Source: a virus
Taxonomy: Duplodnaviria > Heunggongvirae > Uroviricota > Caudoviricetes
Length of the DNA stretch: 26,751 bases
Strand: one strand, 5' to 3'
IMG/VR virus record: IMGVR_UViG_2534681936_000019
The translations under genes and the position numbers were made by a program. The notes under the pieces were generated by a model, which was not told the DNA's origin, did no database searches, and saw only the letters and a list, made by a program, of their open reading frames with translations. This document shows, one piece after another, positions 13,444 through 15,602 of the stretch; positions within the stretch are counted from its first letter, which is position 1; every line of letters starts with the position of its first letter.

Positions 13444-14157
13444 TCAATAATCAAGCCCTTGCCTGGATACATATCTGTCTGGCGGGAAGCCATAATAGCG
13501 GTGAAATACAGAAATAAAGTAGGACCAGCTTGAATAACCGCATTTTTCTGCTACAGCCTGTCCATATCCATGCCGGGAACATAACATATTGACAGCAACA
13601 CGCATCCGCTCTTCCAGCAACAAGCGACTGAACATGTGCCCTTCATTTTTCAGTTTTATCTTTAACAAACTCTCACTCATATGCAGGCGTAACGCAATCG
13701 CACCAAGCGTCCAGCTTGCTGATATATCTGTCTGAATTATCGCCCTGACTTTGGCACTTATACTGGATAAACATCCACTTAAAAATAATAATATCCGTTC
13801 ATCTGATTCAAACAGCGACAGGCATACCATCATAAGAAACATATCCGTGGTATCTCCGGAAAATCTCTGGCTGGTAATTAAAGCCTCAGCCAACGCAGGG
13901 TTGTTGGGTTCCAGTGACAGATAAAGCGGAACGTCAGTCAGATGAGTTCTTGTCAGCTTATGCTGAATTTCCAGATATTGACTTACTATGGAATGGTTTA
14001 TATCGAAAATTTTAACTTTGCCATAATGCATAAGGAAAAGCGCCCTGATGCATTTGGTGGCCAGAACGACTGAGCCGGGCTTAAGTGACAACGTATCCTT
14101 TTCAAGAAAAATATTAATTGGGGAGCAAACCATGATAACTGAACAGACAACAACCAT
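13444..14157 (-). CDS. AraC/XylS-family transcriptional regulator (AppY/GadX/PatE-like)
   Basis: 237-aa ORF with a typical C-terminal double HTH (WTLGAIALRLHMSESLLKIKLKNEGHMFSRLLLEERMRVAVNMLCSRHGYGQAVAEKCGYSSWSYFISVFHRYYGFPP); AT-rich. Confidence 0.85.
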   Translation of the reverse strand: MVVVCSVIMVCSPINIFLEKDTLSLKPGSVVLATKCIRALFLMHYGKVKIFDINHSIVSQYLEIQHKLTRTHLTDVPLYLSLEPNNPALAEALITSQRFSGDTTDMFLMMVCLSLFESDERILLFLSGCLSSISAKVRAIIQTDISASWTLGAIALRLHMSESLLKIKLKNEGHMFSRLLLEERMRVAVNMLCSRHGYGQAVAEKCGYSSWSYFISVFHRYYGFPPDRYVSRQGLDY

Positions 14158-14251
14158 TATAATTTTACTTTCATTAGCAATTGGTTAGTTCAATTATAGC
14201 CCCAAAAGGTAAATTATCATCAACACATAAGCAAAGGACTGACAGGTGCCG

Positions 14252-14491
14252 CTAACACCCACCAGCCGCCCATTTACCACAAATAAAAAAGCCTTCAGGA
14301 CTGAAGGCGTCTGTAACAACCGAACTGATAGTCTGCCAGACCCGCATAACCAGCAGGGTCAGTATTAACTGGCAGCGCTCGCGTGAAAGGTACGTATTCT
14401 GCGCAATCTCCCCAACCGTCGCCGGTTCGGTGACGCTTAATTCATCAAACACAACTCTGGCGGTTTCTGTCATATCCTGCTGTTTCAGCAT
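14252..14491 (-). CDS. Hypothetical small protein (possible HTH) between the CPBP protease and AraC regulator
   Basis: 79-aa ORF (…ATVGEIAQNTYLSRERCQLIL…); a minus-strand terminator-like hairpin (GCCTTCAG..CTGAAGGC + T-run, ~14278-14306) overlaps its 3' end, so the true C-terminus is uncertain. Confidence 0.35.
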   Translation of the reverse strand: MLKQQDMTETARVVFDELSVTEPATVGEIAQNTYLSRERCQLILTLLVMRVWQTISSVVTDAFSPEGFFICGKWAAGGC

Positions 14492-14777
14492 GTCTTTTTA
14501 CCCTTTCCGGTTAACGTGACACACCAATAACTCTTGTCGAAAAAGCCAGCAAGCTGAAAGACCTGTATTAATAACTACCAGCACATTTAACGCACTGCGC
14601 TACTTTGCGGGCACAAAAAACCCGCTCAGAGGCGGGGTCAAGCTATGCGGCGAAATAACCACTCTTAACAGCATACCTGATTTTTTACGTACGTAAATGC
14701 TTTGCCGTGCATATTTTTCATGCAAATGTCACGTCCTGCTATTTTTCAGTCTTATAAATTTAAAACCATAGAAAAAA

Positions 14778-15602
14778 TCAATTATGTTTTAAAAATGGAT
14801 AGGTAAAGAATAACAAGTGACACAGATTCAAACCAAAATGGAAAAGGGTGGCAACCCACAAACGCCCACTCCACATCCATGACAATCCATACACAACACC
14901 AGATAACGTGGCAAATAATACAAGTAAAGCACCACCTGAATAGTGAAAAAAACCAAACAACAAAGCCGCCACAATTAATGCAACCAATGGAGACGTTACT
15001 TCTGATAGCCGTGATTGAATATACCCTCTAAATAATGATTCCTCTGCCAGAGACACAAAAAACAAATTAGCCAATATAAACTCTGGCAACCACTCAGGAA
15101 AATGAATCTCTGGCTTTAATCCACCAAAAAAAACAGCCAAAAACAGGATAAGAGGAACAGAGAGCGACAGAGCCCCCCACTTCCACAAAGACACTTCTGA
15201 TTTTACTTCTTTTTTAAACAAAGAAGATGTACACAGGACTAACAAAAATGGCACCAGCGCTTTATCAAAATTAAAATACATTGTATAGGGAGTGCTTTGA
15301 GGGCCAACAGTAACAGAATTTAGCACTACAGGATTGTGAAACCCTGGCCATAGATGGAAAGATAATGCTATGGCTGATAAAACTATGCCAACTTCATATA
15401 TAGATTTAGCCCAGGCGTTATATTTCCAGTTGAACTTCAAAATAATAAAAAAAACGATTGTAGCAACAAAAAATAACACCGACCAATCAATAATATCATT
15501 AAGCACAGCCAGGACAACAGACACCGTCAACAATGAAAAAGCCACTACCTTATGCCAACTGAGAGTTGACAGTGACAGTACTAACACAATCCACATAAGC
15601 AC
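14778..15602 (-). CDS. CPBP-family intramembrane metalloprotease (CAAX protease / Abi domain, PF02517-like)
   Basis: Polytopic membrane protein with the three family motifs: EExxxR (AEESLFRGY), FxxxH (FGFFHY), HxxxN (HFGLNL). Confidence 0.85.
   Translation of the reverse strand: MLMWIVLVLSLSTLSWHKVVAFSLLTVSVVLAVLNDIIDWSVLFFVATIVFFIILKFNWKYNAWAKSIYEVGIVLSAIALSFHLWPGFHNPVVLNSVTVGPQSTPYTMYFNFDKALVPFLLVLCTSSLFKKEVKSEVSLWKWGALSLSVPLILFLAVFFGGLKPEIHFPEWLPEFILANLFFVSLAEESLFRGYIQSRLSEVTSPLVALIVAALLFGFFHYSGGALLVLFATLSGVVYGLSWMWSGRLWVATLFHFGLNLCHLLFFTYPFLKHN

Follow-up and report, generated by a model that had tools for sequence, protein, structure and literature searches.

The region between antiterminator Q and the tRNA genes of an Escherichia coli O55:H7 prophage is the known psrA region, with two AT-rich accessory genes that appear to flank phage backbone sequence

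What are the three genes that lie between the Q antiterminator gene and the transfer RNA (tRNA) genes of the tailed-phage sequence IMGVR_UViG_2534681936_000019, and do they form a single unit of late expression? This sequence, a stretch of 26,751 nucleotides (nt) to which all coordinates below refer unless stated otherwise (the window), had first been read from its letters without database searches. That sequence-only reading described one cargo cluster of strikingly low GC, consisting of genes for a CPBP intramembrane protease, a small open reading frame (ORF) and an AraC-family regulator, all placed in the Q-dependent late transcript. The three minus-strand ORFs were indeed present at 14778–15602, 14252–14491 and 13444–14157, between Q (15749–16129) and three tRNA genes (13166–13415). 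The locus is the published, and thus already known, psrA region of an Sp4/CP-933N-type prophage of the O55:H7/O157:H7 lineage. As a whole, it is best explained as a Q-proximal accessory region in which two separately acquired, unrelated AT-rich genes flank phage backbone sequence, and we regard this explanation as likely to be correct.

The window is a lambdoid prophage of Escherichia coli O55:H7, read on the minus strand. Several O55:H7 genomes matched the 2.5-kb region at 100% identity, and strain DEC5A (O55:H7) matched the whole window at 99.9% identity. Among 5,426 complete E. coli genomes, 540 carried at least 80% of the 2.5-kb region. Prophage Sp4 of strain Sakai (O157:H7) showed the same gene order, with ECs1084 (Q), ECs1085 (CAAX protease family), ECs1086, ECs1087 (AraC family), ileZ-argN-argO and ECs1088, and the window proteins were identical to those of Sp4 at 270/272 (ECs1085), 78/79 (ECs1086) and 194/195 (ECs1087) residues. 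The gene table of strain EDL933 lists the same synteny, with Z1786 (Q antiterminator) followed by Z1787, Z1788 and Z1789. The concern that the cluster might be a fragment of an unrelated chromosomal island was therefore not borne out, the locus being prophage-borne. Because two of the three genes, psrA and Z1787, have already been named and studied experimentally, the finding is not new, and it carries little weight as a discovery: PsrA is established and Z1787 was already flagged as a candidate virulence gene.

Whether the three genes belong together was assessed from their composition and from related phages. The CPBP gene (38.0% GC), psrA (42.2%) and the spacer between Q and the CPBP gene (28.9%) were all well below the 53–56% of rusA, the tRNAs and the nanS-p esterase gene. 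The strikingly low GC ascribed to all three genes thus held for the CPBP gene and psrA, and did not hold for the small ORF, which at 50.8% is not AT-rich. Comparison with related phages located two variable positions. The first, from Q to the predicted late promoter pR', contains the CPBP gene in the window, nmpC in phage mEp332, a GIY-YIG nuclease gene in phage phiP27 and nothing in Sakai prophage Sp9. The second, from the small ORF to the tRNAs, contains psrA in the window and a psr gene in phage phiSTEC1575-Stx2k, an inducible Stx2k-converting Escherichia phage (the Stx2k phage below), and a DNA methylase gene in Sp9, phiP27 and many Stx2 phages. It follows that the interval of Shiga toxin (Stx)-type phages, which had been thought to hold promoter and terminator sequence only, is occupied: phiP27, Sp9 and many Stx2 phages have the small ORF and the DNA methylase gene, phiP27 has the nuclease gene in addition, and the Stx2k phage has a Psr homologue.

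An alignment of the junctions located the point at which the psr and methylase modules diverge. Moreover, the two AT-rich genes occur independently. A Shigella prophage carries a 59%-identical CPBP directly after Q and has the tRNAs, without psr. In the set of complete E. coli genomes, the CPBP gene was found in 572, nearly always as a single copy, and psr-family genes were found in 726, where the median copy number was two. Of the region, the part with psr and the small ORF was found in the phage genome collection, in which no phage carried this CPBP, the only match being a weak one in Listeria. From the junction alignment and the independent occurrence, the proposed single cargo cluster resolves into what appear to be two AT-rich insertions, acquired independently, that flank backbone sequence, namely the predicted pR' with its terminator tR', and the small ORF. 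An operon of protease, regulator and regulator acting as one functional unit was also considered, and was rejected on the grounds that the modules are also found apart and have unlike GC.

The small ORF (14252–14491, minus strand, 79 residues; ECs1086/Z1788) was recognized by alignment and by PGAP as a frameshifted copy of a conserved 65-residue, winged-helix-like backbone ORF, and it matched PHROG 331. The intact homologues, phiP27 L23 (65 residues), Sakai Sp9 ECs1779 and that of the Stx2k phage, are identical to it up to residue 49 and then diverge, and the DNA alignment showed a 1-nt deletion after codon 49 in the window (GTTAT-GCGGG vs. GTTATGGCGGG). Sakai Sp4 annotates the same 79-residue product, with 78 of 79 residues identical, and PGAP calls the ORF a frameshifted TrmB-family pseudogene. 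An intact homologue reached 18 bits against Pfam TrmB, below the cut-off of 25.6, and the window ORF itself had no significant Pfam match and no NCBIfam match and was not recognized as a winged helix-turn-helix (HTH) protein. The possible HTH seen earlier in this ORF is therefore weakly founded, the frame being shifted after residue 49 and even the intact homologues lying under the Pfam threshold. These comparisons suggest that the window copy is probably defective.

A hairpin resembling an intrinsic terminator, with a T-run, had been noticed over the 3' end of the small ORF, and it was recovered at 14285–14308 (minus strand) by the terminator scan and by folding (−11.2 kcal/mol, z = −3.4). 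The intact homologues stop within or beside this hairpin, whereas the window ORF reads through it because the single-base deletion shifts its frame. A second long hairpin of 14 pairs (14237–14267, minus strand) is conserved in the backbone and marks where the sequence that the window shares with the methylase-carrying phages ends. Beyond psrA, the tRNA cluster (13166–13415, minus strand; ileZ with a CAT anticodon, argN and argO) is again backbone sequence, as in Stx phages. The tRNA at 13340–13415 (minus strand) was called tRNA-Met (CAT) by ARAGORN and is annotated as ileZ, a tRNA-Ile, in RefSeq and in Sakai, which presumes a lysidine-modified anticodon.

The position of the late promoter bears directly on how these genes may be transcribed. 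Q (15749–16129, minus strand; 372 nt in RefSeq) is of the phage 82/DLP12 QuuD type, matching Pfam Phage_antitermQ (PF06530) at 4.9e-52 and 175 bits, and it shares 78% nt identity with the Q genes of mEp332 and related phages, a homology that does not extend past the Q stop codon. In mEp332, a block about 130 bp upstream of the holin gene S reads GGTTTACGTACGTAAAAAATTGGTTATGCTGTTAAGAGTGGTTACTTCG...CCCGCCGTCGAGCGGGTTTTT, and an almost identical block was found at 14615–14697 of the window, downstream of the CPBP gene. By homology and position, this block contains a predicted late promoter pR' of phage-82 type (14670–14697, minus strand), with the −35 element TTTACG (14692–14697), a 16-nt spacer and the −10 element TATGCT (14670–14675). 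It is followed by a predicted intrinsic terminator tR' (14615–14636, minus strand), identified by the terminator scan and by folding, in which a stem like CCCGCC-TCTGAG-GGCGGG precedes T6; this terminator is conserved in mEp332, phiP27 and the Stx2k phage, and phiP27 has the window pR'-tR' sequence from the −10 element onward. The components of lambdoid late control were thus found, with a Q gene and a predicted promoter with a near intrinsic terminator, homologous to the mEp332 unit upstream of the lysis genes, and we infer that 14615–14697 corresponds to pR' and tR'. As a general rule, pR' is constitutive and is terminated just downstream in lysogens (PMC7547250). A short, constitutive pR'-tR' RNA of about 50 nt is predicted in lysogens at 14612–14664 (minus strand), analogous to the lambda 6S RNA or StxS. 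Rfam gave no family between 13400 and 15800, even at E ≤ 1.

Because the CPBP gene lies upstream of the predicted pR', it would fall outside the Q-dependent late transcript, contrary to the proposal that it is part of it. That proposal placed the late promoter in the spacer between Q and the CPBP gene and made all three genes one cargo cluster in the late transcript, with expression coupled to induction. In lambda, pR' lies directly after Q, and in the window all three genes have the late-gene orientation; the AT-rich spacer (15597–15748, minus strand) contains three weak sigma-70-like consensus matches, and the terminator scan found no terminator-like site between Q and the CPBP gene. This spacer, however, has no homologue in phages with related Q, and the homologue of the phage-82-type promoter, leader and terminator lies on the far side of the CPBP gene. 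Furthermore, the independent occurrence of CPBP and psr and the backbone GC of the small ORF do not fit a single cluster. Published RNA-seq of EDL933 bears on both sides. Reads were present for Z1787, Z1788 and Z1789 in uninduced cells, if in small counts. With antibiotics, Z1787 and Z1788 both rose, as one cluster would predict, whereas Z1789 fell to zero, opposite to Z1787. Q reads were lower than Z1787 reads. This pattern agrees, weakly, with separate control of Z1787 and Z1789. In addition, psrA has been reported as regulated in uninduced cells (PMC13502914), which also runs against coupling to induction. Taken together, we consider a single late-transcribed cluster very improbable.

In the preferred reading of two insertions around backbone, psrA appears to have transcription signals of its own. 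Of all sigma-70 matches in the region, the best (10/12) is a predicted psrA promoter at 14193–14220 (minus strand), with ATGATA, a 16-nt spacer and TATAAT (14193–14198), 35 nt upstream of the psrA ATG. The −10 element and its surroundings lie within the psr-specific module: the Stx2k phage has kept them, whereas phiP27 and Sp9, which carry the methylase gene, lack them. This fits psrA as a self-contained insert with its own predicted promoter. The order along the backbone would then be Q, pR'-tR' giving a short terminated RNA in lysogens, the small ORF with its own terminator hairpin, and the tRNAs. For the CPBP gene, transcription would come either from early-operon read-through across Q or from a promoter within the spacer of 29% GC, and the small ORF, psrA and the tRNAs would lie downstream of tR'. 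In lysogens, psrA would be expressed on its own, probably under H-NS/Hha-type silencing of AT-rich DNA; upon induction, Q-modified polymerase from pR' would also read through psrA.

The regulator gene itself (13444–14157, minus strand, 237 residues; ECs1087/Z1789), in the second slot between the small ORF and the tRNAs, was identified as psrA by Pfam, identity and synteny. Its product matched HTH_18 (36.6 bits, cut-off 33.6) and HTH_AraC (35.3 bits, cut-off 26.6) at residues 155–230 and has the C-terminal double HTH of about 100 residues that characterizes the AraC/XylS family; near-identity to ECs1087 and the lambdoid-prophage context of Q, Z1787, Z1788, Z1789 and tRNAs marked it as the PsrA orthologue. 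The earlier suggestion of an AppY/GadX/PatE-type regulator was upheld when the homology of the N-terminal part was checked. ECs0287 (PatE type) aligned to the product over its full length from residue 1 with 37% identity, and the NCBIfam YdeO model aligned to residues 1–229 (1.7e-29), the next match being GadX. The YdeO score was 103 bits against an equivalog cut-off of 348, and the NCBIfam scores were far under their cut-offs. These alignments place the product, as far as sequence comparison goes, in the YdeO/GadX/AppY/PatE group. The Sakai annotation of psrA (ECs1087) begins at the internal Met43 and gives 195 residues (18804–19391 of the Sakai stretch compared). Since the PatE-type, YdeO and PHROG 1450 alignments start at residues 1–3 (residue 3 for PHROG 1450), the 237-residue frame is favored over that of Sakai and is probably the real one.

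ecs1087 of Sp4 has been called psrA, a type III secretion regulator that is encoded by a prophage and activates gadE (Tree laboratory, 2026; PMC13502914), and reviews give psrA as z1789 in EDL933 and describe PsrA and PsrB as raising GadE and YhiF, repressing type III secretion and aiding persistence in sheep (PMC10877973, PMC8565820). Activation of gadE and yhiF by PsrA leads to more acid resistance and to indirect repression of the type III secretion that the LEE (locus of enterocyte effacement) specifies. The expectation that the regulator rewires host acid-resistance or virulence regulons was therefore well placed, as this role is published for PsrA with respect to the GAD regulon and type III secretion, and in enterohaemorrhagic E. 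coli (EHEC) PsrA is an established tie of prophages to the GAD acid-resistance regulon and to type III secretion. The Stx2k phage has a 237-residue Psr homologue (89% identity) directly upstream of the tRNAs and stx2k (3644–4357 of the stretch compared), which brings the GAD/LEE regulator and the toxin into one shared late-operon neighborhood in that phage.

The protease gene, in the first slot, encodes a CPBP (Rce1-like) intramembrane glutamic protease of 272 residues (14778–15596, minus strand; Z1787/ECs1085), as established by Pfam, motifs, identity and primers. The start initially placed at GTG 15602 (274 residues) was revised, the likely start being ATG 15596, which has an AGGAG ribosome-binding site ahead of it and agrees with RefSeq. 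The protein matched PF02517 at 2.2e-19 and 70 bits (cut-off 22.4) and PHROG 13291 at 6e-182. All three family signatures (EExxxR, FxxxH and HxxxN/D) were present, as EESLFR at 185, FGFFH at 214 and HFGLN at 253, confirming the initial assignment to the CPBP/CAAX type. The protein is mostly hydrophobic, with several 19-residue windows of hydropathy >1.6, and the motifs fall within predicted membrane segments, so both the score above the gathering threshold and the placement of the motifs in a polytopic membrane protein accord with the family. Identity with the published Z1787 was shown by exact matches of both Z1787 primers to the window gene, in addition to 99% protein identity to ECs1085.

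Z1787 has been described as a "putative protease on OI-50", and its deletion caused EHEC to lose the inhibition of interferon-gamma (IFN-gamma)-induced STAT-1 phosphorylation, with partial complementation (Jandu et al., 2009). In the same study, Z1787 was 2.7-fold up on HEp-2 contact and not induced on T84 cells, and Z1787 in E. coli HB101 conferred partial STAT-1 inhibition (Jandu et al., 2009). The proposal made there, that the protein is a virulence protease released onto host cells and directly blocking IFN-gamma/STAT-1 signaling, draws on the lost inhibition in the mutant, the induction on HEp-2 cells and the effect in HB101. Soluble release of a protein that is hydrophobic along most of its length, with its catalytic motifs inside predicted membrane segments, is implausible. 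Moreover, the incomplete complementation and the T84 result fit this proposal poorly, and the deletion adjoins the predicted pR' and lies upstream of psrA, so that polar or regulatory effects, and with them an indirect phenotype, are possible. We therefore think it highly doubtful that the protease acts directly on host cells after release. The published STAT-1 phenotype merits a re-test with a non-polar deletion and a catalytic mutant.

A protective role in the lysogen was weighed next to the membrane topology of the protein. Bacteriocin self-immunity proteins belong to the PF02517 family, whose historical name was Abi, and the sequence-only reading had accordingly linked the CPBP protein to bacteriocin immunity and abortive infection. 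If it gave immunity to a bacteriocin or toxin, or acted in superinfection exclusion or abortive infection, the STAT-1 phenotype would be indirect, in keeping with the partial complementation; its several membrane passes and its intact triad of catalytic motifs would suit such a function, and the gene occupies a slot typical of lysogenic-conversion genes, with related alleles at the same post-Q place in other prophages. No PADLOC model matched any of the three locus proteins at E ≤ 0.01, however, and no bacteriocin, toxin, substrate or partner gene adjoining the CPBP gene was found in the window annotation. In Dickeya solani and Hafnia paralvei, homologues of about 50% identity stand alone in the core chromosome, surrounded by housekeeping genes (in Hafnia between modF-like and gal genes), which points to a general envelope housekeeping role instead. 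As the only published phenotype concerns host STAT-1 signaling, the link to immunity or abortive infection amounts to a family-level guess, and we judge a lysogen-protecting function rather unlikely.

On account of these lone chromosomal homologues, the prophage CPBP looks like a captured Enterobacterales envelope protease. A tentative proposal of our own, which we consider rather unlikely to be right, takes the interval from Q to the late promoter, where other phages have nmpC or a GIY-YIG gene, as a recurrent insertion slot. Expression of the CPBP gene in lysogens would then not depend on late transcription, and its product would work inside the bacterial envelope, where it may process a membrane or secreted factor or modulate a sensor. 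The loss of STAT-1 inhibition would be indirect, possibly via altered expression from pR' or of psrA, and the pR'-tR' RNA could be a further regulatory small RNA of the StxS kind.

Several observations weigh against the overall interpretation of two insertions around a late-control unit in the psrA region. psrA is assigned to CP-933N in EDL933 and to Sp4 in Sakai, and the sequence correspondence was drawn from Sakai. For the function of PsrA, the sources were reviews and a later paper by the same laboratory, the primary reports being Tree 2011 and Yang 2015. The RNA-seq counts of EDL933 are small, and their mapping may be ambiguous among paralogous prophages. The assignment of pR' and tR' draws on homology, position and consensus patterns; promoter-like matches numbered 15 against 8 expected by chance in AT-rich DNA, the fold of the short pR' RNA was not exceptional (z = −1.4), and literature searches for the pR' promoter/leader sequence found no paper containing it.

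Elsewhere in the prophage, a strong Rfam match to the STnc100 small RNA (138 bits) was found at 12899–13089 (minus strand), between the tRNAs and the nanS-p-type esterase gene, where Stx phages have stxAB. The early region of the window follows DEC5A rather than strain CB9615. There, a 440-residue ORF without a Pfam match (21616–22938, minus strand) occupies roughly the position that a SIR2-family gene has in CB9615 instead; the slot appears to be variable and might carry a defense gene. An Rfam match to the sok antitoxin RNA (20361–20533, minus strand, 110 bits) adjoins the position of RefSeq hokD in CB9615, and for this reason points to a type I toxin-antitoxin locus. Between hok/sok and the nin region, a gene for a protein with HTH_3 and Peptidase_M78 domains (ImmA/IrrE-like; 18308–19414, minus strand) overlaps a 216-residue ORF without a Pfam match (19392–20042, minus strand).

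Compared with known systems, the window regulator agrees with PsrA of Sakai Sp4 and of EDL933 CP-933N/OI-50 in 194 of 195 residues, in the flanking genes and in the C-terminal double HTH of the AraC family. It differs in its host, which is O55:H7 and not O157:H7, and in one V/A substitution, with no functional difference visible in the sequence. PsrB (Z2104), PatE (Z0321/ECs0287 type) and the chromosomal YdeO, GadX and AppY share with PsrA the AraC subfamily and the activation of gadE/hdeA acid-resistance genes, but they are paralogues and not orthologues, PatE being found in another prophage context. PsrB is reportedly 90% identical to PsrA, and was looked for and not found in Sakai Sp6, Sp9 and Sp10.

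The protease shares with bacteriocin immunity proteins, MroQ and SpdC/LyrA of Staphylococcus aureus and the myxosortases the PF02517 core, the EExxxR/FxxxH/HxxxN motifs and a multi-pass membrane architecture. Only the catalytic core aligns with these proteins, and the NCBIfam scores were far under the cut-offs. Unlike the characterized family members, it has no adjoining bacteriocin, sorting-signal substrate or kinase partner, and its nearest relatives are uncharacterized Enterobacterales proteins. Z1787/ECs1085 is the same gene, although the released protease that was published for it misfits a polytopic CPBP intramembrane protease.

The predicted late unit resembles that of phage 82/DLP12-type phages in that, downstream of a PF06530 Q, a promoter is followed by a short leader and an intrinsic terminator, and it is near-identical to the mEp332 unit upstream of S. 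It differs in that a 1-kb cargo gene lies between it and Q, and in that accessory genes and tRNAs follow it rather than the lysis genes directly. Relative to lambda 6S RNA and StxS, which are short pR' RNAs, the window counterpart of about 50 nt is a prediction and has no Rfam family. Finally, the Q-to-tRNA interval has the small ORF, the hairpins and the tRNAs at about 90% nt identity in common with phiP27, Stx2a phages and Sakai Sp9, together with the two insertion points. In those phages a DNA methylase gene takes the place of psrA and stx follows the tRNAs, whereas the window has psrA and no stx. The region thus exemplifies two fixed cargo slots around the predicted pR'-tR' in phage-82-type and Stx-type phages.

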